A stretch of DNA of 64,000 bases from a virus: positions 12,394-76,393 of the IMG/VR virus record IMGVR_UViG_3300046792_000213; one strand, given 5' to 3'. The translations under genes were made by a program, and so were the position numbers. Below, in pieces: positions 70-63,803 of this stretch. The notes below the pieces were generated by a model that saw only the letters and a program-made list of their open reading frames with translations, had not been told where the DNA came from and searched no databases. Position 1 is the stretch's first letter. Each line of letters opens with the position of its first letter.

Positions 70-270
70 ATGCCCTACCGCCCCGGTGACCGTGTCACCA
101 TCACCAACCCCCACCCCGAGAACGCGAAATGGCGTGGCCTGACCGGCACCGTAGTGGACGACGGCTCCAAGTCCGGCGGCCTCATCCCCGTCAAGGGCCT
201 CGATGGTCGCATCAAGGAAGCCGTCGCCGGCTACCGCGGCTTCTACGCCGAGGAGCTGACCCGCGCATGA
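70..270 (+). CDS. Small SH3/KOW-like hypothetical protein
   Basis: AGGA RBS before ATG 70; YRPGDRVTI...GTVV pattern; ATGA overlap with next gene. Confidence 0.65.
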   Translation: MPYRPGDRVTITNPHPENAKWRGLTGTVVDDGSKSGGLIPVKGLDGRIKEAVAGYRGFYAEELTRA

Positions 271-776
271 CCACCAACAACACCCTTCCGGAGCCCACCG
301 ACCGGGACCTGCTCGACCTCGTCACCATCCACACGCAGATCCGCCAGCAGCCGGCCAGCGCGGGCATATGGGTCCCGCCGATGCCCCCGTTCGAGAACCC
401 CGCGCTCAATCGGCGGGTCCGTCGCCTCGCCGCGGACTACGTCGTCCTTCGGCTCTACCGGGCACACATCGACGCCTGGTGGGCCGAGCGGGACGAGGCC
501 CGGGGCTACGAGGAGATCAACGCCCGTATTCGGGAACGCAACGAGCAGATCATGGCCGCCGCGATGTGGGCGGCGCGCACCCGCGGCGGCGAGATCAAAC
601 CATTCCCCACGGAAGAAGCCGCGCGTCGCGCCGTCCACTCCAACAGCATCTACGGCACCGTGCTACGCCGCACACGGCCGGGTGGTCCTTGGATTGACGT
701 CGTCTCAATCCCCCTGGAAGAGATCACGGCAACATCCCGGATCCGCAGCGCCGCCGACGAACTCACGGGGGCCTGA
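267..776 (+). CDS. Hypothetical protein
   Basis: ATGA-coupled start (MTTNNTLPEP), high-GC3 codons. Confidence 0.7.
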   Translation: MTTNNTLPEPTDRDLLDLVTIHTQIRQQPASAGIWVPPMPPFENPALNRRVRRLAADYVVLRLYRAHIDAWWAERDEARGYEEINARIRERNEQIMAAAMWAARTRGGEIKPFPTEEAARRAVHSNSIYGTVLRRTRPGGPWIDVVSIPLEEITATSRIRSAADELTGA

Positions 777-778
777 CC

Positions 779-976
779 ATGGCATCCCGAACCGTCACCG
801 ACTCCGGCATGACCGACCAGCAGTGGGAAGCACAGAACTCCCGCCTCGGGCCGTCCGCCGCCGAGAAGCGCGGCCTGTGCTGGCAGTGCGCCGGCAAGAA
901 AGTCCTCTACACGGCGTTCGGCGGCGTACAGCGCGAGGTCGACTGCGGCGAGTGCCGCGGCACCGGAAAGGCGTGA
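779..976 (+). CDS. Small zinc-finger protein (DnaJ-like CxxCxGxG)
   Basis: CWQCAG...CGECRGTG. Confidence 0.7.
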   Translation: MASRTVTDSGMTDQQWEAQNSRLGPSAAEKRGLCWQCAGKKVLYTAFGGVQREVDCGECRGTGKA

Positions 977-977
977 G

Positions 978-1262
978 ATGAACCTGTCGTTCCCCACCCG
1001 GCTGGGCGAGAAAGTCATCGTCCGCTCAGGTCCGCTCGGGTCGCGCTGGTCATGCTCAGGCTGCAAGCAGACCGGCACTCCCCGCAAGGCCGACCTGGAA
1101 AAGGAAGCCGCCAGGCACGCTGCCGCCTGCCGATACCGCAAAGGTCAACTCGTCCCGGACCTGCGGGGCTGGGACTGCGCCCGCTGCAACTTCGGCAACC
1201 ACCGCGCCGCCCCGACCTGCGCCGGATGCGGCGCCCACGCCCGCCTCGCCGCCATCTGGTGA
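978..1262 (+). CDS. Double zinc-finger protein with C-terminal RanBP2-type finger
   Basis: WSCSGC...HAAAC plus WDCARCNFGNHRAAPTCAGC, matching W-x-C-x2-C-x3-N-x6-C-x2-C. Confidence 0.7.
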   Translation: MNLSFPTRLGEKVIVRSGPLGSRWSCSGCKQTGTPRKADLEKEAARHAAACRYRKGQLVPDLRGWDCARCNFGNHRAAPTCAGCGAHARLAAIW

Positions 1263-1290
1263 CCAAGCACAACCAGAGAAGAGGCTGACC

Positions 1291-1548
1291 ATGTACCCGA
1301 CCGGCACCCACGTCACGATCCGCTCCGTCGACCACCTGCCCGGCAAGCACCGCAACCTCATCGGCCGGGAGGGCATAGTCGGCGATCACGAGAACGGCAT
1401 GAACATCCTCACCGCCACCGGCTGGGTGATCGGCGGGCACTACGCCTTCCCCGACGACGCCCTCACCGTTACCGGGCGCGGCACCCCGCCCGCCATGCCG
1501 CGCCGGTACCGGGTCCGCGGCTACTACGCGCCCGACCAGGAGTCCTGA
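1291..1548 (+). CDS. Small SH3/KOW-like hypothetical protein
   Basis: GAGG RBS; YPTGTHVTI...GREGIV, resembling 70..270. Confidence 0.65.
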   Translation: MYPTGTHVTIRSVDHLPGKHRNLIGREGIVGDHENGMNILTATGWVIGGHYAFPDDALTVTGRGTPPAMPRRYRVRGYYAPDQES

Positions 1549-1751
1549 TGCCGATCACGATCCGCAAGTCCATCCGCATCCTGCCCGGAGTGAAGCTGAA
1601 CTTCGGCCGCCGCTCGCGGTCGATCACGATCGGGCCGAAGTGGTTCAAGAAGACGTACTCGTCCACCGGCCGCACCACGACCTCCGCCGACCTTCCCGGC
1701 CCGTTCGGATGGCGCACCAGCACCCGCCGCACCCGGAACGAGAACCAGTAA
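1548..1751 (+). CDS. DUF4236-like basic protein
   Basis: RKSIRILPGVKLNF...SITIG...S..LPG motif; TGATG coupling. Confidence 0.75.
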   Translation: MPITIRKSIRILPGVKLNFGRRSRSITIGPKWFKKTYSSTGRTTTSADLPGPFGWRTSTRRTRNENQ

Positions 1752-1818
1752 CCACTCCGCCGGCCAACCCACAAGCCCCGCCCAAAGCCACACCACCAAC
1801 CGGCCCCGGACCCACGAC

Positions 1819-1851
1819 AGCCGCCCCTGCCCGAGAAGGGCAGGGGCGGTT
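1819..1851 (+). terminator. Hairpin terminator
   Basis: AGCCGCCCCTGCCC/GGGCAGGGGCGGTT stem after the plus-strand cluster. Confidence 0.7.
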
Positions 1852-2024
1852 CGCTTGCGTCAGGCGGGTGGCACGTCGAGCTCGTCGTTCGCGCAGCCGG
1901 CAGCGACGCGACGATCATTCGCTTCATCATGGGACCTGCGCACCGAGTGCTCGGCAGCAACAGGGGCAGGCGCGACCGGCGTTCACTCGGCGGAGCGAAC
2001 CAGGACGCACTACGCTCACCGGCC

Positions 2025-2624
2025 ATGTCCATCCACTGGTCCGACGGCACCAACGCCATCGCCGCCACAGCCAGCGCCGTCGCAGCCGTGGCCGCCTGGT
2101 TTGCCGCACGCAGATCCAACACGACCGCCGAGACCGTGGCGCGAATCGAGCGCGACCGCTGGCACACCGAACTCACCCCGGAATTCGATGTCACCGCAAC
2201 AGCCCTCGGGCCTGGCACCAACAAGGCGTCCCTGCACATCACGCTCAAGAAGCCAACCGGCCTGCCGGGGCTCACTAAAGGCATCCTCCGAATCCGGGAC
2301 GACGGCTACGTCCACCAGCCGCTCGGCTTCGTTACCCAGGAGATGATCGACGCCACCATCTACGGCCCGTACCGGTTCGAACCTGGCATCAGTGGCGCCA
2401 GCGCGGACGGCCGTACCGTGACCAGCCGCCCAATCGGCCTTGGTGACTGGGACAAGTTCGCCCTTGAACGCACCCTGCCAGACCACGTGGACCAGGATGT
2501 CTGGCACAGCACCTACGACAACGCCCTTATCAGGCTGTCCATCGAGTGCCACGCCGACGGCCACAAGCCCTGGCACGTCACTTACGAGATAGCCGTTGCT
2601 GATCCTGCCTCACCCCAGGCATGA
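2025..2624 (+). CDS. Membrane-anchored hypothetical protein (moron-like)
   Basis: N-terminal hydrophobic helix AIAATASAVAAVAAWFAARRS; TACGCT -10-like box 8 nt before ATG. Confidence 0.7.
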   Translation: MSIHWSDGTNAIAATASAVAAVAAWFAARRSNTTAETVARIERDRWHTELTPEFDVTATALGPGTNKASLHITLKKPTGLPGLTKGILRIRDDGYVHQPLGFVTQEMIDATIYGPYRFEPGISGASADGRTVTSRPIGLGDWDKFALERTLPDHVDQDVWHSTYDNALIRLSIECHADGHKPWHVTYEIAVADPASPQA

Positions 2625-2625
2625 G

Positions 2626-2663
2626 GAAGCCGCCCCCACCCCGCGAAGGGTGAGGGCGGCTTC
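2626..2663. terminator. Bidirectional hairpin terminator
   Basis: GAAGCCGCCC...GGGCGGCTTC between convergent genes. Confidence 0.75.
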
Positions 2664-2723
2664 GTGGTCAGGTGCGGCGGCGGTCAGGGAGTAGCGCCGG
2701 CGGCGTGGTCGGTGGGGGCGTCG

Positions 2724-3518
2724 TCAGGTGATGTTCTTCTGCCGCCACAGGTCGTCGATCAGGTCGAGGCCACGGGCGGTGGCGTAGGCCACCGGGTAGT
2801 TGATCCCCCGGTTCGTCTCCGCGAGCACCCTGAAGTGGCCGCCGTCCTGGAACGCCTTCCGCGGCAGGTTCCGCCCACCACCGTACTGCGAGGTCTGCTT
2901 GCGGAAGATCTGGATCTCGACGAGCCAGTTCGTCATGGTGCGGACGTCGGTGCCGAGCATGTCGGCAGTCTCGGTCATGCCGATCAGCCCGTCGGCGTTC
3001 AGGAACTTGTCCCACTTCCCCGCCTTCGGGGCGGCGACCTCCAGCTCCTTCGCGAGCTGCTGTTCGCGCTCCAGGGCGGCGACGTACTGCTTGGCCATCT
3101 CCAACTCGGACATCGGCCGGCTCGTCGCGATCTCCGCTTTGCGGGTCTGGACGGTGAAGTACGACTGCGCTGCGGCGACGGCGGGCTTGTTGGGCTCGCC
3201 GTTCATGGCGACGAGGTACGCGGCCTGACGACTCAAGTGATAGTCGGCCCGGGGGGCGCCGCCAGTACCTTTTTCCTGACTCCGGGAAAAAGCCTGATCA
3301 GAGTAGGTGCCCGTGTTCTCGGCCGACCGGATGGCACGCTCGATGACCCGGAGGAAGTTCTCCCACTTGTCGTAGCCCATGACCGGCTGAAGGTCCCGAG
3401 CGGACCAGTACTCCTGGCCGTAGTCGTCTTCGCGGCGAAGGGCGTCGAAGGGACTGTTGTTCCCGCCGCCCCCGTCGTTGCCTACGGCTGCCAGCGAGAT
3501 ACCGTTGTTCTGTGCCAC
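2724..3518 (-). CDS. Phage antirepressor (DinD/BRO-like N-terminus, KilAC/ANT C-terminus)
   Basis: EYWSARDLQPVMGYDKWENF...AAAQSYFTVQTRKAE; APKAGKWDKFLNADG; GGAGGA RBS before GTG 3518. Confidence 0.85.
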   Translation of the reverse strand: MAQNNGISLAAVGNDGGGGNNSPFDALRREDDYGQEYWSARDLQPVMGYDKWENFLRVIERAIRSAENTGTYSDQAFSRSQEKGTGGAPRADYHLSRQAAYLVAMNGEPNKPAVAAAQSYFTVQTRKAEIATSRPMSELEMAKQYVAALEREQQLAKELEVAAPKAGKWDKFLNADGLIGMTETADMLGTDVRTMTNWLVEIQIFRKQTSQYGGGRNLPRKAFQDGGHFRVLAETNRGINYPVAYATARGLDLIDDLWRQKNIT

Positions 3519-3617
3519 GGAGCTGTGTCCTCCTGGTTCGTAGCCCTCCGCGGGACCCACTCCCGCGCGAGGGCGAACTTCGTTATGGGGCGGATCATCT
3601 GACGATCCGACAGCAAT

Positions 3618-3639
3618 ACGATACCGGCACTTCCGGACA
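3618..3639 (-). promoter_or_regulatory. PafBC/RecA-NDp-like promoter TGTCCG-N10-TATCGT
   Basis: One mismatch to TGTCGG-N10-TA-N3-T; upstream of the antirepressor. Confidence 0.5.
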
Positions 3640-3719
3640 AAGTGTGACCTCTGCGTGATCAAGGAAATATCAGCTATTCGGGACAGCGGTGCACCGGTCG
3701 TTGGTCGAATCAGACCGAG

Positions 3720-3764
3720 CATGCGAAAGCGCCCCCGCCCGGCCGTGAGGCCAAAGCGGGGGCG
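3720..3764 (-). terminator. Terminator at end of late/lysis operon
   Basis: CGCCCCCGC...GCGGGGGCG followed by CTTTCGCATG. Confidence 0.7.
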
Positions 3765-3767
3765 GTG

Positions 3768-4421
3768 TCAGTTGCGGCGGCGGTCGGACAGCAGCGCGGG
3801 CTGCGTCGGTGTCGGCGATGGTGTCGGGTCGGGTGCCCCGTCCTGGCGGCACACCAGCGCATACGGGTCGTCGAGCGCGGGCTGCTGACTGTATCCGTCG
3901 GGGCAGGGCGAGCCGGGATCGCCTTTCTCGCCCTGCACGCCGGGCGCCCCGTCTTTCCCGTCCGCACCGTCCTTCCCGTCGACACCGTCGCGGCCGGCGG
4001 CGCCCGCCTGTCCGTCCGCGCCCGGAGTGCCCGCCGCACCGGGGAGCCCGGGCGCACCAGTCGCCCCCGGCTCGCCCTGCTGGCCCGGCACGCCAGGAAC
4101 ACCCTGCTCGCCCTGCGGCCCAGCGACTGGCACCGGCACCGCCGTGCGGTCCGGAAGATGAGGCACAGCCGAGGCCGGGTCCGGCGCGACCGGTGTCCCG
4201 CCGATCGCCTGAACCTGCGCCCGCAGAGCCCGCACGTCCCCAGTCAGGGTGGATACCGCCCCGCCCCGCAGGTCGGCCTCCGCGGCGGCGGCCTTGCGAG
4301 CGCCGATCTCGTGATCGACTTTCGTCCAGATGATCAGGACGGCACCGCCAAGGGCGACGAGGACGCACGCGAGGAGCGCGCTGCGCCACCGGCGGGCGAG
4401 GGCTTGCTCCGCGCGGGTCAT
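3768..4421 (-). CDS. Membrane-anchored collagen-like protein of the lysis cassette
   Basis: TM helix, coiled coil, ~20 G-X-Y repeats, CPDG...LVC tail. Confidence 0.85.
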   Translation of the reverse strand: MTRAEQALARRWRSALLACVLVALGGAVLIIWTKVDHEIGARKAAAAEADLRGGAVSTLTGDVRALRAQVQAIGGTPVAPDPASAVPHLPDRTAVPVPVAGPQGEQGVPGVPGQQGEPGATGAPGLPGAAGTPGADGQAGAAGRDGVDGKDGADGKDGAPGVQGEKGDPGSPCPDGYSQQPALDDPYALVCRQDGAPDPTPSPTPTQPALLSDRRRN

Positions 4422-4684
4422 GGGTTCCCTCCGAGTTGGATGATGATCGCGCGCAGGCGGGTGATTTCAGCCTGGTCCGCGGCGCGCAGCGCGGACTGGT
4501 CAGCGAGGATGACGGCTTGGTCGGTGACCTTGCGGTCGAGGCGGTCCCGCTCTTCTTGGAGATCGCCGGTGAGGCTGGTGTAGCCCGTCAGAGCGGTCTC
4601 GCCCCTCTTCCCGAGGTACGCCACCGCCGCGCCGAGGACACCGCCGATGCCGACCAGCAGCGCCCCCAGGGCGGTGGCGTCCAA
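4418..4684 (-). CDS. Small membrane/coiled-coil lysis-cassette protein
   Basis: Single N-terminal TM plus coiled coil; coupled to collagen-like gene. Confidence 0.75.
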   Translation of the reverse strand: MDATALGALLVGIGGVLGAAVAYLGKRGETALTGYTSLTGDLQEERDRLDRKVTDQAVILADQSALRAADQAEITRLRAIIIQLGGNP

Positions 4685-10312: not shown

Positions 10313-13300
10313 TTATCGCTTGTAGGCCGGGTACGTTGTCGAGTTGCGGCGTGCCCGGTTGAGGTAGCCCTGCTCGACGATGTCCACGAGGGTCCGTTCG
10401 CTGACCACGGACCCCTGGACGGTGTAGTGGTTGTGGACGACCGTGGGACCGCCGGCCATGCCGCCCCCGGCGAGAGCGGCGCCCTGCTGGACGGCCATGG
10501 CCATTCCCTGAGCGGCGACGACGGCGTGTTTCGTGGATCGGTTGATGCCGACCGCCATGCCTTGTGCGGTGTAGTCACCGAGCTGCGCCATGACTGCAGA
10601 CGGGGACCGGATACCGAGCGCTTTCTTGATCGCCGCCTGCATGGACTTGGCGATCTTCAGCATCTGCGCCTCGATCGCCTTCTCCTGCGACTGCAGCCCC
10701 TGCACGAGGCCCTGTGCAGACTTGATGCCCGCCCCGTACATCGCGTCGGCAACCGCACTGCCCGTGGCGTTCGCGGAGGACTGCATGCCCTTCTGCAGGT
10801 TGTTCAGCTCGGTGATCGTGCCCTTCGACGCGCCCATCAGAGCGGCAGTAGTCGCACCACCCTGGTCCACACCGGACGCGGCGATCTGCGCGATCAGATC
10901 CGACCGAAGCCCGGCCTTTTGCAGGGCACGCAACTGCGCGGCGAACTGGCTCGCTTTCGCGGCCTGGTCGCGCATGTTGTTCACGACGTCCTGCGAGGTC
11001 AGAGCGAACCCTGCCTGCGGGGCGGTCGTGATGATCGACGCGTTCTGCATGATCCCGGACGCGATCGAGTCCCGCTCCGACGCCCACGACTTCAGCAACG
11101 CCGCGAGCTTCGACTGGGCCGCTTTCAGCTTGCCCGCGACCGAATCCCGGTCGGCGGCCAGTTTGAGAAGCGCCGCGTTGTCCTTCGCGACGGCCTTCTG
11201 CAGGCCCTTGTGGCTGCTGCCGAAGTCCGTGTAGAGCATGCTCGCGATGCGCTTCGTCGCGGCCTTCACACTGGCCGTGGACCCGGTAAGGCCCTGCACA
11301 AGCCCGGTCATCACGTAGGCACCAAGCGCCTTGAACTTCTTCGAAGGCGAGGCAATGCCCAGCTCGTCGGAGAACGCCGCGGTGGCCGCCTTCGCCATGG
11401 CAATAGCAGCGGCCATCACGTCCGGCTGGCCCCCGGCGATCCCTCGGGCCACGCCGGCGGCGACGTTCGAGCCGGCGCCGACCGCCGCCTGTCCCCAGGA
11501 AACCGAGCCGCCGAGGATGCCCACGGTCTCCGTGGCGATCTGCCGGGAGCGGGCGTTGCGCGTGTGAGGGATATACGACTCGTCGGGCCCCTCGCCCCAC
11601 AGGATGTTGGAGCCGCCCTTGGCCATCATCGCCGGGCGGCCGAAGCCACCCTCAGCCATGCGCCGGACGCCACCGGAGACCACGGCGCCTGTGGCGTACC
11701 TGCCGCCGCCGGGCACCGCCACACCCGACCCGGACGCGATGCCCTTGTACACGACGTTGACGTGCACGGTTTTCCCGGACACCGACGCGATGGCCCGCTT
11801 CGCTGCGGCAATCTTGTTCTGCAGGTCAACGATGTCGCCACGGATGGACGTCTGCTTCGACGCCGGGGTGTTCCCCAGGTCGGCCTTGGCCTTCTTCAGC
11901 TTCGCCTGAAGGTCAGACAGGTCACCCTTGAGGAAGGCGGTCTTGTCGGGAGCCTTCAGGATCTGATCGGAGAGCTTCTTCGCCTGGTCCCGCGTGAGGC
12001 CCATGGCGTCCGCGGCGCTGATCAGCTTGGCGCGGCCCTGCTCGTAGATCCCCGACACTGTGGACCACGACTTGCCCTGATCCCGGGCGGCAGCAGCGTC
12101 CGCGTCCGCGGCGGCAGCCAGATCCGCCAGAGGCTTGTACGCGTCCCGCGCCGCCTGGGAGTTCAGGTCGATCTGCCCGTGCACCATTTTCAGTGCACTG
12201 TGGTGGCCCTTGATGGCCGCGGTGGTGTCATCAATCGCCTGCTGGAAATCAGCCTCCGCGGACAGGCCAGCCCGGTTCACGTCATTCAAAGCCTGGATGG
12301 ACTGGCGCAATCCGTCGGCGGACTGCTTCTGTGCGTCGAGGTCCCTCTGCACGGACTGCGCCTGCTGCCCGAACATGCCCATCGAGTCGGCAACAAGATC
12401 CTGCTCGAACTTGGCGTCGGCCAGAGCGCTTTTGTAGCCGTCGAGGCGGTCTGTCAGTTCCTTGGTGGGCTGCCCCGACTTCTTGACCTCGGCGGACAGC
12501 TTCGACACAGCGGCGGCGGCCAGGTCCGCCTTCCCGCCCTGCACCAACTGGGCCAGGGCGTCGTCGACTGCGTCGATGTCCTTCTTGGCGTCGTTCCACG
12601 AATTCGACTTCTTGTGCCCAAGGGTGAAGATCGAATTCATAGTGTCGTTGAAGTGGTCCATCTTGGACCCGCCACCGTTGAGGCGGTCGATGGCGCTGTT
12701 CAGCTTGTCGAAGTCGCCACCGAAGGCCACGGCCGCCTCGCCGGAGACCTTCCCGGTGTGGCCCAGTTCGCCCAGGGATGTGGTCAGCTTGTCGACGTCC
12801 GGGGCTTTCTTGCCCGAGGACATCAGCGAGTTCACGACCAGTACGAGCGCGCCGATCGCAGCAACAGCGCCGCCGATCTTTGCCCCGGTCGACAGCGACC
12901 CAATAGCCGCCCGCACGCCGGCGACACCACCACCAGCAGTGGTGGATGCGACCCGCAGTGCGGTCAGTCGAGTGGACAGAGCCGTAATAGAGCCCGCCAC
13001 GGTGGTGATCCCGGCAGAGGTCAGCTTGATCAGCTTAAGCGCGGTGTAGGCCTGCAAGGTGCGGGCGATGAACGACACGGGCAGCGAGGCGACCAGGGCG
13101 GCCGTGGCGTTGACCAAGGACAGGACGCCCGGCCCCGCCTCAGCAGCACCCTTGAAGACCTGCATCACGGCCCTCGCGATGTTCTCCAGAGTCTTCCGGA
13201 CCGCCGGCCCCTGATGCTCCGCGTACTTCATGAAGTCCGCGACCGGACCGTTGGCCTTCCCCTCAGACAGGACGCGGCTGAAGTGGATGACGTCATCCAC

Positions 13301-35276: not shown

Positions 35277-36212
35277 TCAACCGGCCCGCTTCCCGCCCCC
35301 GCCACCGCGCTTGGTCGTGGTCTTCTTCCCTGCGGTCTTCTTGGCCGGTGCCTTCTTCTTTCCGGTGGCTTTGCGGTCGCCCATGTGGTGGACGTCGGCG
35401 TGATCGCCGGTTTCGCGCCGGTCCCGTGCTTGGTCGGCGGCGGCTTTGAGTGCGGCCATGAGGTCGAGCGGGCCGCCCTCCTCCTTGCCCTTTGCGGGCT
35501 CGGCGGCCTTCGGTGGGGCGTGATCCTCGGCCTTGGCCTCGATGAGGGCTGTGACGGCTGCGGCGTAGTCGTCGTGCATTTGGGCGAGGTCGATGTCGCC
35601 CACCACCCCGATGTAGTCGAGGGCGGCCTGGATCTCATCCTCGGTGAGGTCCACGTCCGTGCGGGGTCGAGCGTCATCAGCGGACCGCAGCTCGTCCGGC
35701 CAGTGCAGGCGCTGCAGCACCAGCACCTCACCCTGAGCGTGGATCACAGCCAGGGTCTCCCCCGTACCACGGAACGCCATCTTGCCAACGGCGCCCTTCC
35801 CCGCCCGGGCCAGGGCTTCACGCATCAGCACGTAGGGCTTGTTCGCCGCCGAGCTCTGGGCCGCCAGGAAATACGGGGTTCCGAACTGCTCCCCCGGGAT
35901 CGCGCCGAGGTCCACGAAGCCGCTGATCTCCACCGTCTTCGCCGTGGGCAGAGGCAGGTCGTCCAGCTCCTGATCCGAGATCGGCACCAGGGTCCCGTCG
36001 GGAGCCTCGTAGGCCCGGCCGATCTCGTCCATGCCCAGCGGCTGCGTGTGATCGTCCATCTCCAGCTCGCACACCCGCCGGTTCCGCACCCGGCCGTGGT
36101 CCTCCAGGTGGATCTGCCGGAACCCGACCTTGTGGGAGTGGACGGCCGGCTCAACCCTGACAGGGATCGCGACCAGGCCGAAGGTCAAGGTTCCACTCCA
36201 GATGGCGGGCAT
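35277..36212 (-). CDS. ku: Ku DNA end-binding protein (NHEJ)
   Basis: AIWSGTLTFGLVAIPV, GRAYE, PYFL, LHWPDELR, DLMAALKAA, Lys-rich tail. Confidence 0.95.
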   Translation of the reverse strand: MPAIWSGTLTFGLVAIPVRVEPAVHSHKVGFRQIHLEDHGRVRNRRVCELEMDDHTQPLGMDEIGRAYEAPDGTLVPISDQELDDLPLPTAKTVEISGFVDLGAIPGEQFGTPYFLAAQSSAANKPYVLMREALARAGKGAVGKMAFRGTGETLAVIHAQGEVLVLQRLHWPDELRSADDARPRTDVDLTEDEIQAALDYIGVVGDIDLAQMHDDYAAAVTALIEAKAEDHAPPKAAEPAKGKEEGGPLDLMAALKAAADQARDRRETGDHADVHHMGDRKATGKKKAPAKKTAGKKTTTKRGGGGGKRAG

Positions 36213-36343
36213 GGCGCGTCCTTCCCGTGGCGGACCCCCGGTGGCCACGCTACGGACCGCCCTCACGGCGCGCCGGACGGGTACGCCCAATCGGGTGCTG
36301 CATCGTTAGTCCGGCAACCCACCGTGGCAAGGAAAGGTCGACC

Positions 36344-36631
36344 ATGAAGCCGAGGTTGACACTGGAGGAACACCAAGACCTGGGGCTGTCCCTCGCTTGC
36401 GTCAGGGACGAACTGGAGAAGCGGACCGCCCAGCTCGCCGACGCATACCCGCGTTCAGGACCAGAAGCGGTGCCGGGCAAGTTGCTCATTGATGCCCTGC
36501 GCTTGTTGGAGTCCGCACGATGCGAACTCGACCACATGATGTTCCGCGAGCACTGGGACGACGGAACCCCAGCGGTCTACTACCCGGACGATGACCAGCG
36601 GGCGACCTGGCGGCCAATCAGGCGGCGATGA
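36344..36631 (+). CDS. Hypothetical protein
   Basis: GAAAGG RBS; divergent from ku. Confidence 0.65.
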   Translation: MKPRLTLEEHQDLGLSLACVRDELEKRTAQLADAYPRSGPEAVPGKLLIDALRLLESARCELDHMMFREHWDDGTPAVYYPDDDQRATWRPIRRR

Positions 36632-36698
36632 GGCTATCCGAGGCAAGCAAGCAGCGGCTCGCTCCGGGTCGGCGAGCCGCGTGTGGCTACCCTGGCGC

Positions 36699-36735
36699 GC
36701 AGGCGCCCTCCCACTAGTCCTGGGAGGGCGCCTGC
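36699..36735. terminator. Bidirectional hairpin (15-bp perfect stem)
   Basis: GCAGGCGCCCTCCCA/TGGGAGGGCGCCTGC between convergent genes. Confidence 0.75.
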
Positions 36736-36753
36736 ATCGGTCAACGGCTCAGT

Positions 36754-37314
36754 TCACTCGCGTACTCGAGCTGTCGCGTCCCGCAGGATGGCGACCTTCG
36801 TGCCGCTACTGATCGCGGTCACGTGGGTTCCGCCCTTGAGGGTGGACTCCCAGAGCTCGTCGACGATCCGCCGAATCGCTTCCTCGTCCGGGATGTCGGG
36901 GTTCGCCTCAAGTTCAGCGAGGACAGTCATGAACTCGGGGACCTGACGGAGAGCCTGGAACCAGTCGCTGACGTCCTCGATCTCCTTGCTTCCGCGTTCG
37001 GGACGCTCGGCGATCCAGCGCGCCATCTCGCTCGAGTCTGGCCAGTCCGGGGAGTCCCTATGGCACGGCGCACACAAAAGGATGACGTTCGACGCATTGT
37101 CCGAGCCGCCACGACTCGAGGGCACGACATGGGCACGCTCGAGCGTGGCCCGCTCCCAACTCGCCCGAGGCGTCGCCTTCGCCCAGCGCTCCGAGTGCCA
37201 GCCGCAGGCGAAGCAGCACGGCTCCTTCAAGTCCTCGAGCATCGGCGCGAACGCGTTGCGGTCAGGGCTCGAGGCCCAGTGCTGTGCGAGCTGCCACTTG
37301 TCAGGAACTGTCAT
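36754..37314 (-). CDS. HNH endonuclease
   Basis: CFACG...ERAHVVPSSRGGSDNASNVILLCAPCH. Confidence 0.85.
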   Translation of the reverse strand: MTVPDKWQLAQHWASSPDRNAFAPMLEDLKEPCCFACGWHSERWAKATPRASWERATLERAHVVPSSRGGSDNASNVILLCAPCHRDSPDWPDSSEMARWIAERPERGSKEIEDVSDWFQALRQVPEFMTVLAELEANPDIPDEEAIRRIVDELWESTLKGGTHVTAISSGTKVAILRDATARVRE

Positions 37315-37598
37315 GCCTGCCTCATCTCGTCGCGCGTTTGAACCGCGACCGGGGAGCCCCACCAGTTCTCGCCGAAGATTTCTACCAGCCGGTCGGCCAC
37401 CTTGATGAGGCCCTTCTCGCGTAGTTGCTCGTCGGCGATCTCCGGGGCTTTCAGGTACTCAGCGATCCAGACGTCAAAGAGCACCGTCAGTTTGGCAGCC
37501 AACCAGTCCGTCGAGTCCGTGTCGTTGGCCTCGAGCAGGCGAGGGTCGATGTCCATGCGTACTCCGCTTCGAGTGGCAACTGCGGGCGGGACGGTCAC
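37311..37598 (-). CDS. Hypothetical protein
   Basis: Coupled between recombinase and HNH. Confidence 0.65.
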   Translation of the reverse strand: MTVPPAVATRSGVRMDIDPRLLEANDTDSTDWLAAKLTVLFDVWIAEYLKAPEIADEQLREKGLIKVADRLVEIFGENWWGSPVAVQTRDEMRQA

Positions 37599-38650
37599 AG
37601 TCCGATCCCTCTCATCGGGTTCTCCTCGTGGGCGTCGACCGCGCGGATGTACTCGAGCACCTGCGGCGAGCCTTCAGCCCAGCGACCCTGAGCTCGGATG
37701 GCCGAGATGGGCGCGCGCTTCTTGTACGCCTCGGCAGCCCCGCCGGCACGGAAGCCGTGGGCGGTGTAGACGAGGTTGTCTTTCGGGAGGACCCGGGTAG
37801 CGCGTCGCTGGACCATCTCGTTGATGGCGTCCCCGGACATGGTGTCGCCCGTGATCACGTCCCATCGGTTGATGGAGCGGAGGAGTCGCCCCGTGGTGAT
37901 GCCGCGCTCGAGCAGCGCTTGGCGGTAGGCGCGGACGACGCGGATGGGGTCGGTGTCGTTGTGGATCCCTCGAGGGACGACGACTTCCTCTCCGGCGCCT
38001 TCCTGGTCGGTCTTGGAGGTCCGGATGAGGATGGTGAGGTCGCCTTCGTCGTCTTCGACGATGTCCTCGATGTGGAGCCCTGCGAGTTCGGAGCGGCGGG
38101 CCATCATGGCGAAGCCGAGGATGAAGATGGTGCGGTCACGGAGGCCGGACAGCGTCTCGAGGTCGCAGTCCTCGATCAGCAGGCGCAGTTTGACCAGGCC
38201 GATGGCGGGCGCCTTGCGTTTCCGGGTGCCGCTTTCGGCGCGCTTCTTCCGGTAGCCCTTGAGGACGCGTCGGGCTTCACCGGTCTCGGGCTGGTGTGGA
38301 TGGCCGGCCACCTTGTGGGCGGAGCGGATGACGGCAATGGCTTGCTCGATGCTCGAGGGCGCCAGTGGGCGGCCGGTGCTCGAGGGGGTGGTCGTGAGGT
38401 GGGTGACGTACTCCCACAGGGTTCTGGCGGTTGCCGGGAGGGGGACGCGTCCTCGATCGGCGCACCACTTGGTGAAGGTGTCCCACTGGCGGCTGTATGC
38501 GCGCTGGGTGTTGTCGGGGATTGATTCCTCGAGGGCGCGAAGCGCTTCGTCGGAGACGTAGTGGTCTCGCTCGGTGTGGACGGCCGCTGGGACCGGTGCT
38601 CGCGGGGCTGGGAGATGGGGTCCGACGGAGGACTCGAGGGGTTCGCTCAT
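37595..38650 (-). CDS. Cre-like tyrosine recombinase (SAM-like N-domain)
   Basis: NTQRAY..QW, RRSEL, SKTDQEG, HGFRAG, QGRW...EYIR. Confidence 0.92.
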   Translation of the reverse strand: MSEPLESSVGPHLPAPRAPVPAAVHTERDHYVSDEALRALEESIPDNTQRAYSRQWDTFTKWCADRGRVPLPATARTLWEYVTHLTTTPSSTGRPLAPSSIEQAIAVIRSAHKVAGHPHQPETGEARRVLKGYRKKRAESGTRKRKAPAIGLVKLRLLIEDCDLETLSGLRDRTIFILGFAMMARRSELAGLHIEDIVEDDEGDLTILIRTSKTDQEGAGEEVVVPRGIHNDTDPIRVVRAYRQALLERGITTGRLLRSINRWDVITGDTMSGDAINEMVQRRATRVLPKDNLVYTAHGFRAGGAAEAYKKRAPISAIRAQGRWAEGSPQVLEYIRAVDAHEENPMRGIGL

Positions 38651-38661
38651 CCCCCAATCTT

Positions 38662-38689
38662 ACCGCCGATAAGGCAAGTTATCCGGGGT
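38662..38689. promoter_or_regulatory. dif/lox-like recombination site (11-6-11)
   Basis: ACCGCCGATAA-GGCAAG-TTATCCGGGGT; arms are 9/11 inverted matches. Confidence 0.7.
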
Positions 38690-38724
38690 TAGAGTCAACT
38701 CGAAAGATGCGAGCGCTCAAGTCA

Positions 38725-42928: not shown

Positions 42929-43852
42929 TCAGGCGGCGGGGTTCGGGTTCCCGAAGTCGAGGTGGGTTTGACCGAGGCGGTTCCGCAGCGCCAGGTCGTG
43001 ACACGCCGGGTCGAGGTCGACTCCGACGTACTTCCGGTCGAGCCGGAGCGCCGCAGCCCCAGTGGTGCCCGAGCCGGAGAACGGGTCCAGAACCACGCCG
43101 CCAGGCTTGCAGCCAGCCTTGATGCAGCGCTCCGGCACATCAATCGGAAAGGTGGCGAAGTGCTCGACCCTCCCGGACTTGTTGGGCCGGTTCGCCAGCG
43201 ACCAGACGTCACCCGGGTTCCGCCCCATGGGGTGCGACCGGACGTGCGCGCCACCGAGGGCGTCCAGTCCGTCCTGCTTGCCGTTGGTCCACGGCTTGGC
43301 TTCCCGATACAGGCCTTGTGCTGCTGGTGCTGCCGCGCGCTGCTGGTACTTAGCGGTGAACTCGCTGATCGGCTCACGGATCGGGTCAAGGTCGAACAGG
43401 TACCGTTCCGACTTGGCCAGCAGGATCACGTGCTCGTAGCGGCTGGACAGTCGGTCTTTGTGCGGCTCCGGCATGGCGTTGGTCTGGTGCCAGATCACGT
43501 CGTTCCTGACGATCCAGCCGTCGTCTTGGAGGGCGATGGCAACCCGGCTTGGGATGAGCTGGAGCTGTTTGCTTGATCCGTAGCTGTCGCCGAGGTTGAT
43601 CCAGCAGGTGCCGTCGATGGCGAGGACCCGGCGTGCCTCGTGGAAGACGGCGGTCATGGTGGCCACGTACTCAGCGCGAGTGGCCTCCCACCCGTATTGG
43701 CCTTGGATGCCGTAGTCGCGCTGCTTCCAGTAGGGCGGGCTGGTGACGATGCAGTCGACCGACGACTCCGGCATCGAGCGCAGGACGTCGAGGGTGTCGC
43801 CGAGGAGCAGCGTCACCTGATCGTCGCGGTAGTGCTCGGTGGGCGCGGTCAC
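42929..43852 (-). CDS. DNA amino-methyltransferase, beta class (likely N4-cytosine)
   Basis: VTSPPY motif IV before VLDPFSGSGTT motif I; HFATFP. Confidence 0.92.
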   Translation of the reverse strand: MTAPTEHYRDDQVTLLLGDTLDVLRSMPESSVDCIVTSPPYWKQRDYGIQGQYGWEATRAEYVATMTAVFHEARRVLAIDGTCWINLGDSYGSSKQLQLIPSRVAIALQDDGWIVRNDVIWHQTNAMPEPHKDRLSSRYEHVILLAKSERYLFDLDPIREPISEFTAKYQQRAAAPAAQGLYREAKPWTNGKQDGLDALGGAHVRSHPMGRNPGDVWSLANRPNKSGRVEHFATFPIDVPERCIKAGCKPGGVVLDPFSGSGTTGAAALRLDRKYVGVDLDPACHDLALRNRLGQTHLDFGNPNPAA

Positions 43853-44016
43853 TGCTGGCCTCGGTTCGGGTAGGCGCGGGTGAACCATTTGCAGCCGGTG
43901 CACAGCCAGGCCGGGGCGCTGGTGCAGCCGTCGCTGTACGCGGGGTCGTAATCGAAGGTGTGGCTGCCGCATTCGGGGCAGGTGTCGGGCCGGTCGTCCG
44001 GCGCGGGGGCGCTCAC
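43849..44016 (-). CDS. Small zinc-finger protein
   Basis: CPECG...CTGC; GTGA coupling. Confidence 0.55.
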   Translation of the reverse strand: MSAPAPDDRPDTCPECGSHTFDYDPAYSDGCTSAPAWLCTGCKWFTRAYPNRGQQ

Positions 44017-50637: not shown

Positions 50638-50894
50638 GACGCGGCTCCGTTCTTGCGGCGGGCGTTGCGGCGTTTCATCGCGCGGCGCTCGTCCTCGCTG
50701 AGGCCACCCCAGACACCGGCGTCCTGTCCGGTGTTGAGGGCCCACTGGAGGCAAAAGACCCTGACCGAACACATCCGGCACTCCCTCTTCGCTTCTTCGA
50801 CCTGGAGGAGTGCCGGGCCGGTCTCGCCAACGGGGAACCAAAGGTCAGGCGTTTCGCTGTCCCTGCATCGCGCCTGCATGCGCCAGTCGCTCAT
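50634..50894 (-). CDS. WhiB-family Fe-S transcription factor
   Basis: Four conserved Cys, GVWGGLSEDERR. Confidence 0.92.
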   Translation of the reverse strand: MSDWRMQARCRDSETPDLWFPVGETGPALLQVEEAKRECRMCSVRVFCLQWALNTGQDAGVWGGLSEDERRAMKRRNARRKNGAAS

Positions 50895-51502
50895 GCCGCC
50901 ATCCCCTTCACTCGCCGGGCTTCCTTGGAGTCCAGGTGGTTGCAAATGCGCGATATGGCGGAGGAGTCGATGCCGTACCAAGCGCCGAGTTCCGTCTGCG
51001 GGACGCCCAGTGCGTAGAGGGCGCGGACGTCCTCGCGCTCCTCTTCGGTGAGTTTCACCGGCTTCGGCACGTCGTCGGCGCCGACGAGGCCCTTGTCGAT
51101 GGCCCTCTGCACCGCCTGGTGCGCGCTCTCCCGGCCGCTGTACTTCAAGGTCTCCGCGATCTCGGCATACGACAGTCCGGACGAGCGGAGGATCGCCGCT
51201 GCCTTGTGGCGGTCGTCCTTGCCGAGTCGCCGCCACGTGCGCGCGGCATGCTCAACATTGGTCACTGCGTCCAGGTGGTCCGGGTTGATGCAGATGGTGT
51301 TCTGGCAGGTGTGGTCGATCTCGTGGTTCAGGGGGATCGGGCCCTTGTGGTACTCGAAAGAGGCGCGGTGGGCCCATAGGGTGCGCTGCCCCCTGGGCCG
51401 AGAGTCGTCGTAGACGCGCCCGTATCCGTTGCTGTCGGCGTAGCCCTGCCACTCCCAGCAGGAAGTGACCGGGTCCACGACATAGCGGCTCAGGTCGGTC
51501 AT
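50891..51502 (-). CDS. HNH endonuclease with C-terminal HTHs
   Basis: CWEWQG, AHRAS, DHTCQNTICINPDHL. Confidence 0.85.
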   Translation of the reverse strand: MTDLSRYVVDPVTSCWEWQGYADSNGYGRVYDDSRPRGQRTLWAHRASFEYHKGPIPLNHEIDHTCQNTICINPDHLDAVTNVEHAARTWRRLGKDDRHKAAAILRSSGLSYAEIAETLKYSGRESAHQAVQRAIDKGLVGADDVPKPVKLTEEEREDVRALYALGVPQTELGAWYGIDSSAISRICNHLDSKEARRVKGMAA

Positions 51503-51927
51503 GCCGTCCACCGCCTCGTGGGGATGCCCGCGGCTTCGGCCATGTCGGCGCAGCTGCTCGCACCGTGGGAGGGGTGCGGGTCGGTGCGGCGGCAACGGGG
51601 CGACGTGCACGGGCCGATGAACGCCAGGCATGCGTCGGCGCCGAGGCTGACCATGTGGGCGTTGCGGCGGGGGCCGGCGGCGGGCCACGGGCCGAAGTCC
51701 TCGGCGCGGTGCCGCTCGATCTCGATGGGCGCGCCGCGGTCGCGGTGGTACTCGGCCCACGAGTTGGCCATGGCGTCGGCGCCGCGGGGGCACGCGCCGT
51801 GGACGAGGACGAATGTGTCTCCGACGAACACCGTGGCGGCGAGCAGGCTCGTCAGCGGCTTTGTGAGGGTGGTCTCGTCTGTCCAGTCGCGGGAGCCGGT
51901 GACGAGGACGCGGTAGGGGGTGGTCAT
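51499..51927 (-). CDS. SLOG-family (YspA/DUF2493-like) protein
   Basis: VLVTGSRDW, VHGACPRGAD, AGPRRNAHM. Confidence 0.85.
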   Translation of the reverse strand: MTTPYRVLVTGSRDWTDETTLTKPLTSLLAATVFVGDTFVLVHGACPRGADAMANSWAEYHRDRGAPIEIERHRAEDFGPWPAAGPRRNAHMVSLGADACLAFIGPCTSPRCRRTDPHPSHGASSCADMAEAAGIPTRRWTA

Positions 51928-62227: not shown

Positions 62228-62509
62228 TTGCTGCGTGCCAAATACGTCCTCAACAACGGCCTCGACCATGAGACTCCAGTCGTGGTGAGAGAATCACGAG
62301 GAATGGTTCGGGTCGAGCTGTCGCCCACCGAGTTCTCCCCGGCCGCCTGCGCCGCCCTGAACGCCGCCACCGAGCAACTCCTCGCCGGCGGCCAGTGGTT
62401 CCAGATCTGGCACGGGGAGATCGTGTCGATGGAGTCGCCCGAGGACGCGCGTCAGGGAGGCACTGTTGCCCGGATACATCGAGGACCGGTGGTACACGAA
62501 GCGTCCTGA
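62228..62509 (+). CDS. Small hypothetical protein upstream of integrase
   Basis: GGGGAG RBS; LAGGQWFQIW. Confidence 0.6.
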   Translation: MLRAKYVLNNGLDHETPVVVRESRGMVRVELSPTEFSPAACAALNAATEQLLAGGQWFQIWHGEIVSMESPEDARQGGTVARIHRGPVVHEAS

Positions 62510-63803
62510 TCCGGAGACGGGGAAGCGACGCAAGACCGCCCGCTACGGGCAGGGGAAGCGCTGGCGGGTCGCTGGAATCCCGGGCGTCCGGGGCCGGTCG
62601 TTCACCAACCTGGAGGGCCCCGGCGGGGCGAAGGCGTGGCTCAAGGCCAGCGCCACCGACACCACCCGCGGCGCCTACTACGACCCGCGCGACGGCCAGA
62701 TGACACTGCGCGAATACGTCGAACAGCACTGGTGGCCACACCTGCGGAAGCCGCCGACGACCAGGCAGTCCATGAAGTCCCGGGTGTTCAAGCACATCCT
62801 CCCCCACGTCGGGCACCTGCCGCTCAACCGCATCGGCCACGACGAGATCCGCGCCTGGCAGACAGCCGCCGAGAAGAACATCGACGTCGGCACCCTGTCC
62901 GTGACCTGGGCGCACTTCTCCTCCATCATGCAGGCCGCACACAAGGCCAAACGCATCCCGGTCAACCCGTTCCGAGACGACGACCTGAAGGCGCCGCGGA
63001 CCTCGGCGTCGAAGGCGAAAGCGTGGCCGTTGCCGACGTTCACTGCTGTGCGCGGCGAGCTTTCGCCCCGATACCAGGTGCTTGCCGACCTGGGGGCCGG
63101 CGCCGGGTTGCGGCAGGGTGAGTGCTTCGGGTTCTCACCCGACGACATCGATGGGGACGCAATCCATGTGACGCGGCAGATCGTTGTGGTCAGGGGGCGG
63201 ATGGGGTTCGCACCACCAAAGGGCGGCAAGGAGCGCGACGCGCCGTGCTTCCCGGAGTTGGCCCAGGCGGTGAAACTGCACGCGGAGCAGTGGCCGAGCG
63301 TTGAGGTGACGCTTCCATGGGTGGATCCTCGGCGTCCGAGCCTGGCGTGGGAGGATCGGCCGACGCGGACGGTGCGGCTGCTGGTGACCACGCAGCACAC
63401 GTCGGGGATCAACGGTGGGGCGATCAACCGCACGACGTTCGACGACAGACAGTGGAAGCCGTCCCTCGTGCGGGCCGGCGTCCTGCCGGAGCCCGAGCGC
63501 ATCAAGGTGCAGGGCAAGGGCGCCAAGCCGTGGACGCAGGTGAAGTGGAACATGCCCAGGGAGGACGGCTTCCACGTACTGCGGCACACGTTCGCGAGCG
63601 TGGTGCTGGCCGAGGGTGAGACGATTACCCAGCTCGCCGCATGGCTGGGGCATTCCGACCCGGCGTTCACGCTCCGGACCTACGTGCACTTCATGCCGTC
63701 GTCGGGGCGTCGTGGCATCGAGGCGCTGGGGCGGATGTTGAGCGCCGGGGGTCTCCCGGGCTCGCCTGCTCCGCATTCTCCCCAGATTCTCCCCGAAGCC
63801 TGA
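62466..63803 (+). CDS. int: Tyrosine integrase
   Basis: GLRQGE, FHVLRHTFAS, LGH, TLRTYVH catalytic motifs. Confidence 0.96.
   Translation: MPGYIEDRWYTKRPDPETGKRRKTARYGQGKRWRVAGIPGVRGRSFTNLEGPGGAKAWLKASATDTTRGAYYDPRDGQMTLREYVEQHWWPHLRKPPTTRQSMKSRVFKHILPHVGHLPLNRIGHDEIRAWQTAAEKNIDVGTLSVTWAHFSSIMQAAHKAKRIPVNPFRDDDLKAPRTSASKAKAWPLPTFTAVRGELSPRYQVLADLGAGAGLRQGECFGFSPDDIDGDAIHVTRQIVVVRGRMGFAPPKGGKERDAPCFPELAQAVKLHAEQWPSVEVTLPWVDPRRPSLAWEDRPTRTVRLLVTTQHTSGINGGAINRTTFDDRQWKPSLVRAGVLPEPERIKVQGKGAKPWTQVKWNMPREDGFHVLRHTFASVVLAEGETITQLAAWLGHSDPAFTLRTYVHFMPSSGRRGIEALGRMLSAGGLPGSPAPHSPQILPEA
63775..63794 (+). repeat. Tandem ATTCTCCCC repeat, candidate integrase arm-type sites
   Basis: Copies at 63775-63783 and 63786-63794 at the int 3' end. 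Confidence 0.5.

Follow-up and report, generated by a model that had tools for sequence, protein, structure and literature searches.

An island of CTCGAG sites in a mobile recombinase–nuclease operon of a temperate phage that otherwise avoids the word

Avoidance of restriction sites is a textbook signature of the arms race between phages and their hosts. Here we describe the opposite, a selected and recurrent enrichment of one restriction word in a single mobile operon. The operon was studied in a 64-kb stretch of phage DNA (hereafter, the window), which corresponds to bases 12394–76393 of the 76,393-bp IMG/VR viral contig IMGVR_UViG_3300046792_000213. The word is the XhoI-type site CTCGAG, and the operon, referred to below as the cassette, is 1.9 kb long and encodes a predicted Cre-like tyrosine recombinase, a small open reading frame (ORF) and an HNH endonuclease. 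As in other cases of restriction-site avoidance, CTCGAG is depleted in the phage outside the cassette, in the flanks of related prophages and in the chromosomes of Streptomycetaceae, presumably through the same selective agent. Unlike in those cases, the sign is reversed within one operon, where the word exceeds expectation about 8-fold and, in the rich members of the family, fills 55–70% of the slots, i.e. positions at which the encoded proteins permit CTCGAG by synonymous choice. Literature searches found no report of local restriction-site enrichment.

Several described systems resemble the island in part. Highly iterated palindromes, such as the cyanobacterial HIP1 (GCGATCGC), share with it a high density, presence in all reading frames, overriding of codon choice and changed amino acids. 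However, they are a lineage-wide property of a genome, whereas the island covers about 2 kb within a phage genome and a host that remove the word, and its state flips between close relatives. Clusters of methylation sites that act as sensors are another parallel. Dam sites (GATC) are clustered at oriC, where they are bound by SeqA, at the P1 pac site and in IS10, and the cre promoters of P1 are reportedly Dam-sensitive, which is said to have been described by Sternberg and co-workers in 1986. In these systems, too, a dense methylatable palindrome is found at a DNA-transaction function of a mobile element or phage, including Cre in P1. But the known clusters comprise 2–11 sites in promoters, origins or cleavage sites, whereas the 15 sites described here run through the coding sequence of an operon, and the word is also a restriction target avoided by the rest of the genome. 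With P1 Cre/loxP, the cassette shares a recombinase profile that matches Cre only among solved structures, the catalytic residues and a single conserved element beside the gene; the differences are the low identity, a search for a 13-8-13 lox-type site that found none, and the coupling of the recombinase to a nuclease gene. Free-standing homing-endonuclease cassettes (HNH, Endonuclease VII-like, GIY-YIG) are likewise small nuclease modules found at varied places in mosaic phages. The constant gene here, by contrast, is the recombinase rather than the nuclease, and we know of no homing cassette that accumulates a host restriction site.

The CTCGAG island of the window

The contig derives from a soil metagenome, the only full holder of the sequence among public runs and its likely source; no RNA run is listed as a holder. 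It is linear, with a CheckV completeness of 94%, and encodes an integrase, anti-repressors, a terminase, a portal protein, an endolysin, a RecE-like exonuclease, a DNA methylase of family PF01555 and a second HNH protein. Since an integrase is present, the phage is considered temperate. One correction concerns the label of prophage, used in the initial annotation of the window: the sequence is a viral contig in which an integrated state is not shown.

An exact pattern search recovered 15 copies of CTCGAG in the window (Table 1), and the same 15 are the total for the whole contig. In the remaining 74.5 kb of the phage the count is zero, versus Markov expectations of 33 (order 1), 35 (order 3) and 25 (order 4), making CTCGAG the most avoided 6-bp palindrome of the phage outside the cassette. 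Within the cassette, 15 copies stand against 1.8 expected (order 1), which corresponds to 7.8 sites per kb or about one per 130 bp. The island coincides with the three-gene operon: the first site comprises codons 5–6 of the recombinase gene and the last one ends 8 nt before the stop codon of the HNH gene. The initial annotation, made by eye, had thus placed all 15 sites correctly, and its statements that the rest of the window has none, that the enriched span matches the operon and that the phage avoids XhoI-type sites agree with the exact counts, the first of these for the whole contig as well.

Other words are also missing from this phage. CGTACG is absent from the whole contig (0 versus 17.5 expected), GGGCCC and CCTAGG occur 17 and 0 times versus 78 and 8 expected (order 1), and several further 6-bp palindromes are depleted, suggesting that the phage has been purged of multiple restriction words and not of CTCGAG alone.

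The sites are found in all three reading frames. Eight are written CTC-GAG (Leu-Glu), five TCG-AGY (Ser-Ser) and two lie in the third frame, where they need rare codons (GCT-CGA-GTA and CCT-CGA-GGG). Eight of the nine Leu-Glu pairs in the cassette are written CTC-GAG. To account for composition, we permuted synonymous codons within each gene in 5000 trials, so that neither the protein nor the skewed codon usage of the gene itself changed. The shuffled genes had 4.4 sites on average and never more than 10, versus the 15 observed.

Filled and empty relatives of the cassette

We compared loci that encode recombinases 69–85% identical to that of the window, which gave eight cassettes of a close subclade. 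Four are rich in CTCGAG: the window (8 + 7 sites, in the recombinase gene and downstream of it, respectively), L001 and L002 from two Streptomyces genomes (11 + 3 and 6 + 7) and L004 (4 + 1). The other four (L003, L005, L006 and L046) have no sites at all. Occupancy of slots follows the same two modes, filled or empty, with 15 of 24 slots filled in the window, 13 of 19 in L001 and 14 of 22 in L002, versus none of 33 in the four poor relatives. In the codon alignment, conserved columns (Pro-Ser-Ser, Pro-Arg-Gly and Leu-Glu-Tyr) are written with CTCGAG in rich cassettes and with other synonyms in empty ones, whereas other sites require amino-acid changes. Codon and amino-acid usage as the cause of the island is therefore refuted by the shuffles, the slot occupancy and the poor relatives. 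The enrichment survived both checks that the initial annotation had proposed as possible refutations, since CTCGAG is not common elsewhere in the window and usage of codons and amino acids is not sufficient to produce the sites.

Enrichment always extends downstream from the recombinase through the next gene, and in no case does it reach upstream. The DNA that flanks the rich cassettes is purged, with 0–1 sites versus 5–9 expected: outside the cassette, no site is found in the other ~19 kb of L001, and one each in L002 and L004. On the host contig of L001, 14 sites fall within the cassette and 4 in the remaining 238 kb. Islands are present in four of six purged loci versus none of three unpurged ones. 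More distant homologues of the recombinase (34–56% identity) have 0–1 sites. One of them, in a Microcystis phage, has no island, and the genome of that phage is not purged of CTCGAG. The record of this phage (Mwe-JY05, PP395638.1; locus L175) is peculiar in another respect. Its GC content in the stretch read is 73.8%, far above the value of about 42% for Microcystis, and its recombinase is closest to the Streptomyces-phage family, so the recorded host may merit a second look.

The partner of the recombinase is not constant. It is an HNH protein in the window and an Endonuclease VII-type nuclease in L001, L002, L004 and L006, and these non-homologous partners are also enriched in CTCGAG, except in L006. 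Richness is not tied to the partner nuclease, since L006 carries Endonuclease VII and yet has no sites. Nor is it tied to the PF01555 methylase of the phage, as no homologue of this enzyme turned up at distances of up to 10 kb from the other rich cassettes. At 11196–11834 of L002, downstream of the cassette, a different frame codes for a C-terminal piece that resembles the end of the Endonuclease VII-like protein of L001; it looks like what is left of an earlier nuclease gene next to the current one. The cassettes are also found in different places. That of L001 sits between homologues of orf178 and of the DUF6011 gene, which are adjacent in the window, while the window cassette sits after the DUF6011 gene; loci L002–L006 share no gene with the window but the recombinase within 10 kb. 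Such different insertion points in otherwise unrelated loci indicate that the module is mobile.

Phylogenetic and alignment data indicate that the sites have been gained. At five alignment columns, Leu-Glu is found only in the clade of WIN (the window), P0002 and L001 among ~55 homologues; elsewhere, including the nearest sister, the same columns have Pro/Ser-Glu, Ile/Val-Glu, Ile-Ala/Asp, Pro-Ala/Thr and Ala-Glu. Even within this clade, the three members are not alike at the site-creating Leu-Glu columns, which indicates that gain and loss are continuing. The rich state is polyphyletic in the maximum-likelihood tree, where L002 (13 sites) pairs with L003 (none). Between rich cassettes, sites are conserved about twice as well as other hexamers, whereas from rich to empty cassettes conservation is 0 of 24, versus a background of ~0.25.

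The enrichment concerns the bare hexamer. Around 56 sites of five islands there is no flanking consensus (flanks ≤0.27 bit), and no longer recognition motif was found. When hexamers seen at least five times per island are ranked by their observed/expected ratio, CTCGAG is first or second in four of the five islands, L004 being the one where it is third; in the window cassette it is second. None of the other palindromes that these phages have purged is enriched in the islands, which rules out a general escape from purging. A preference for CTC and GTC codons is common to rich and empty cassettes, while CGA codons that are not part of sites are raised in the rich ones only, which fits turnover of sites in that frame. 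Taken together, the shuffles, slots, flanks and hexamer ranks show word-specific, two-directional and operon-confined selection on a hexamer that hosts and phages purge.

A second island in genome G002 (L035, 9817–11011; contig C2, 149817–151011) indicates that the phenomenon is not limited to this recombinase. Its 1.2 kb contain 9 sites, 8 of the 16 available slots are filled, and it covers a two-gene operon in phage-type DNA that consists of a UTRA-only gene and a GntR/UTRA regulator gene. The island lies ~50 kb from the recombinase cassette and adjoins genes for a GIY-YIG–GntR fusion protein and an antirepressor. Separately, a viral contig that is only moderately rich elsewhere contains a gene-sized island in an unrelated gene (L113, 4267–5460, minus strand), a 397-aa ORF with 18 CTCGAG (25 sites in 1.3 kb) which by its sequence looks like a sliding clamp.

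What may read the sites

Given an exact 6-bp palindrome without flanking preference that is purged by hosts and phages, we infer that the sites are read by a type II restriction-modification enzyme of the host with specificity for CTCGAG (methylase, nuclease or both). In the reading that we favour, natural selection would have built the island where it now lies, as a cis-feature of a small operon, composed of a Cre-like recombinase and a His-Me-finger nuclease, that moves among otherwise unrelated temperate Streptomyces phages. CTCGAG would have been written into more than half of the positions that the proteins permit, and the proteins altered to permit more, while the remaining phage and the host chromosomes erase the word. 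The array would then report the methylation or restriction status of the DNA and thereby gate a potentially dangerous DNA-breaking operon. Fully methylated in its home strain, it would be inert; un- or hemimethylated, in a new strain or after replication, it would change state, either through a shift in expression or through cuts that hit only dispensable DNA. If restriction immunity is lost with the very first site but each further site adds to the benefit, fitness would be expected to peak twice, at no sites and at many. We assign a probability of roughly 0.4 to this reading as a whole, from selection on the word in place to its reading by a restriction-modification enzyme and the gating of the operon.

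Several observations weigh against it. L006 and L046 lie in purged flanks and have no sites, so purging of the surroundings does not suffice for an island to form. The comparison covers eight cassettes of the close subclade, and the tests of conservation between rich cassettes are individually weak. No CTCGAG-specific methylase or nuclease was found. The XhoI family (PF04555) was not found in the phage or in the host genomes G001 and G002, although this is a weak test, as 14 control genomes were equally silent and isoschizomers may come from other families. The phage has a PF01555 (N6/N4) methylase of its own, homologues of which were not found near the other rich cassettes. To our knowledge, known methylation sensors sit in promoters or origins and not across coding regions. 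Finally, any site exposes unmodified phage DNA to cleavage, a cost that a benefit of the array would have to outweigh. A literature search on XhoI isoschizomers in Streptomyces returned nothing useful, and a defence-system search gave no match of the cassette to known defence systems.

The initial annotation had also speculated about a deliberate cluster of decoy or methylation-sensing sites linked to the HNH nuclease. The idea of a deliberate cluster is supported as far as the evidence for word-specific selection given above goes. The link to HNH was not borne out: relatives with 13–14 sites carry Endonuclease VII instead, and the second HNH gene of the phage has no sites.

The same enzyme could be met in another way. 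In a programmed break zone, cutting at clustered sites would leave two essential arms with compatible TCGA ends, to be rejoined or to start recombination or replication. Such a zone would suit the confinement of every site to one accessory operon, the Ku genes directly downstream in the window and in L049, and the DNA-joining and DNA-resolving enzymes that the cassette is predicted to encode; with 15 sites, moreover, escape through methylation would be very improbable. We nonetheless hold this alternative to be unlikely, because it explains the clustering of sites but not their retention, a phage without sites being safer. In addition, no Ku gene was found within 10 kb of L001, L002 or L004, and contigs of the source metagenome show even depth and no deletion joints, although contigs cannot reveal rare ones.

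Alternatively, the reader might not cut or methylate at all. A CTCGAG-binding silencer or roadblock protein could use the array as a unique address in a cell where the word is otherwise rare, and keep the operon off. In the host, no other cluster is as dense as the cassette; clusters of three sites are found mainly in a few conserved, highly expressed housekeeping genes. The island also matches a transcription unit, the second island of G002 covers a regulator operon, and genes of this kind plausibly need tight repression. Yet no such protein is known or was found, bare 6-bp palindromes without flanking preference are typical of type II enzymes and not of regulators, and restriction is the simplest explanation of the genome-wide purge. 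We therefore consider a landing pad of this sort unlikely as well.

A different question is whether the sites were written where they are now found. According to the initial annotation, the cassette had recently been imported from a lineage that over-represents CTCGAG, and it would then simply be unpurged as yet. Viral contigs rich in CTCGAG do exist (L105 reaches 4.3 sites per kb across 14 kb, and L088 reaches 5.1), the cassette is mobile and it has a slightly lower GC3 than the phage. However, no donor could be found. All homologues with 67–89% identity are from Streptomyces and other Streptomycetaceae, and exact counts in 41 Streptomycetaceae genomes give 84–3,880 CTCGAG, or 0.015–0.46 per kb; the host chromosome of L001 is itself depleted, with 536 sites in 8.4 Mb (0.064 per kb). 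Among 301 Actinomycetota, a sample described here in aggregate only as it includes 11 unpublished genomes, the density reaches at most ~2.5 sites per kb by a proxy based on tight triple clusters, versus 7.8 in the cassette. A scan of viral contigs for tight clusters turned up tandem repeats, genomes that are rich throughout and islands in unrelated genes; nothing among these is homologous to the cassette. Furthermore, the site-creating Leu-Glu residues are derived inside a Streptomyces-associated clade whose three members still differ, non-homologous partner genes are enriched too, and with a polyphyletic rich state import would have had to happen three times or more, with another partner gene on each occasion. 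The CTC/GTC codon preference, moreover, is the same in rich and poor versions. Import is thus disfavoured and unlikely, and the claim of a recent arrival is not supported.

If the sites arose in place, they could in principle have done so without selection, by a local mutational drive in which biased repair or conversion, of the sort suspected behind highly iterated palindromes, turns near-sites into CTCGAG only on an often-recombining cassette. Sites in all frames, amino-acid changes and high saturation are the pattern of genome-wide iterated palindromes, mobile cassettes often form heteroduplexes, and the encoded nuclease families can act on mismatches or junctions. The near-sites CTGGAG, CTCGAC and CTCCAG are absent from the cassette, versus about one expected of each. 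One-mismatch neighbours overall, however, are not depleted (8.8 versus 7.1 per kb), the partner nucleases belong to different families, L006 has both the recombinase and Endonuclease VII without a single site, and we know of no mechanism by which a drive of this sort would stay within 2 kb. We regard it as very unlikely. Least of all can the island be a by-product of protein composition and codon preference without selection on the DNA word, an explanation with next to no chance of being correct, for although 8 of the 15 sites are Leu-Glu in two common codons and highly expressed host genes reach 3–4 sites in this way, no shuffle attained 15, sites in frames 1 and 2 use rare codons and poor relatives with identical amino acids write no CTCGAG.

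Selection in place, read by a host restriction-modification enzyme, would have consequences beyond this phage. Phages would be using host epigenetic marks as information and not just evading them, with a bearing on host-range control, lysogeny decisions and the spread of cassettes among phages. We tentatively propose that restriction-site islands could represent an undescribed class of cis-elements, through which host enzymes report where a DNA has been, in its home strain or a foreign one and as a resident or a new arrival, in order to switch or physically remove recombination genes. If so, islands in unrelated genes, such as the regulators of G002, would be independent inventions of the same device. 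The island would also be a local and experimentally tractable counterpart to the unexplained genome-wide iterated palindromes, since a 2-kb operon can be recoded in culturable Streptomyces.

Anatomy of the cassette and its genomic background

The three genes of the cassette are translationally coupled on the minus strand (Table 1). The GTG start codon of the small ORF overlaps the stop codon of the recombinase gene; an internal ATG would give an alternative product of ~81 aa. Its own stop codon overlaps an ATG of the HNH frame (ATGA), and this ATG, at 37314, is the likely start of the HNH protein. A hairpin beginning 19 nt past the HNH stop codon is likely the terminator and the right edge of the operon.

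Table 1. Features of the cassette and of the surrounding phage genome (positions in the window)
Feature	Position	Strand	CTCGAG sites	Remarks
CTCGAG island	36765..38638		15	only copies in the 76.4-kb phage
Site starts	36765, 37031, 37115, 37138, 37234, 37268, 37530, 37652, 37907, 37969, 38156, 38352, 38379, 38528, 38633			
Predicted Cre-like tyrosine recombinase, 351 aa	37595..38650	-	8	
Small ORF, 95 aa from GTG	37311..37598	-	1	no match in family and profile searches
HNH endonuclease, longest ORF 202 aa	36754..37362	-	6	Pfam HNH PF01844
Conserved upstream element	38651..38704	-	0	left edge of cassette; candidate promoter, operator or recombination site
Hairpin	36699..36735	-		inverted repeat, perfect 15-bp stem (100% complementary), 7-nt loop
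Ku end-binding protein gene	35277..36290	-	0	Pfam Ku, 118 bits; context, outside island
PF01555 DNA methylase gene	42929..43972		0	
Second HNH gene	50891..51793		0	
Integrase gene	62466..63803		0	main integrase of the phage

Judged by its sequence, the recombinase is truly Cre-like. A family profile built from 17 homologues matches only P1 Cre and Cre variants in the PDB, with an E-value of about 1e-14 and over nearly the full length. Residues R185/186, E188, K213, H298, R301, W324 and Y334 align to the catalytic positions of Cre and are invariant in the 17 homologues, so that the Cre-like set R-(E)-K-H-R-W/H-Y is present in the C-terminal domain. One of the Leu-Glu CTCGAG sites directly precedes the codon of the catalytic Tyr334. 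The protein scores 20.6 bits against the Pfam family Phage_integrase (PF00589), under the cut-off of 27.1, while several homologues with 50–70% identity do carry this domain; the match to a PHROG integrase family has an E-value of 7e-14.

The HNH protein matches PF01844 with 29.4 bits (cut-off 21.4) and HNH_5 with 27.7 bits (cut-off 27.5), and has relatives at ~35% identity in Gordonia phages. Matches to McrA-type enzymes (PADLOC, E-value of 1e-4; PDB 6ghc, E-value of 0.002) cover residues 73–105 only, i.e. the 30-residue HNH core. As no similarity extends beyond this core, assignment to the type IV methyl-directed (McrA-type) enzymes is not supported.

Upstream of the recombinase gene, ~45 bp before the start codon are near-invariant in eight lineages, whereas the recombinase proteins are only ~70% identical. 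Homology between loci starts about 57 bp before the start codon. By alignment, the matching element is found in L001 (9947–10000), in L002 to L006 and in L046. Within it are the dyad GGATAA-N6-TTATC and, right against the start codon, a TAAGAT box that suggests a possible leaderless transcript. At 38699–38704 the window has TTCGAG where L001 has CTCGAG, the single site of the element in that locus. A site of the lox type would have inverted 13-bp arms around a spacer of 6–8 bp; the element has a dyad of 5–6 bp with a 6-bp spacer. It is present in a single copy in the phage, G001 and G002, where no second copy was detected. The cassette offers a putative new Cre-like recombinase together with a conserved single-copy candidate site.

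A gene for a Ku end-binding protein lies directly downstream of the cassette in the window. In L049 (10001–12090) a Ku gene also directly follows a recombinase homologue; relative to the window (35277–38650), the recombinase is 52% and the Ku protein 41% identical. The recombinase–Ku pair may be a recurrent module for the handling of genome ends.

In the depleted Streptomycetaceae chromosomes, the genes with triple clusters of CTCGAG recur and, by their translated sequences, resemble GroEL, EF-Tu and inositol-phosphate synthase. Codon optimisation appears to outweigh the purge in these genes. Among the 41 Streptomycetaceae, CTCGAG counts vary ~45-fold and are mostly far under expectation, while GAGCTC ranges from 245 to 4,671; such word counts may reflect the lineage-specific histories of restriction systems. 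Some viruses show the opposite tendency. The viral contigs L105, L088, L090 and L123 (GC about 0.69) are rich in CTCGAG throughout, with 4–5 sites per kb over 12–15 kb. The capsid gene of L105 resembles those of Arthrobacter and Mycobacterium phages, suggesting that some actinophages over-represent the word that others purge.

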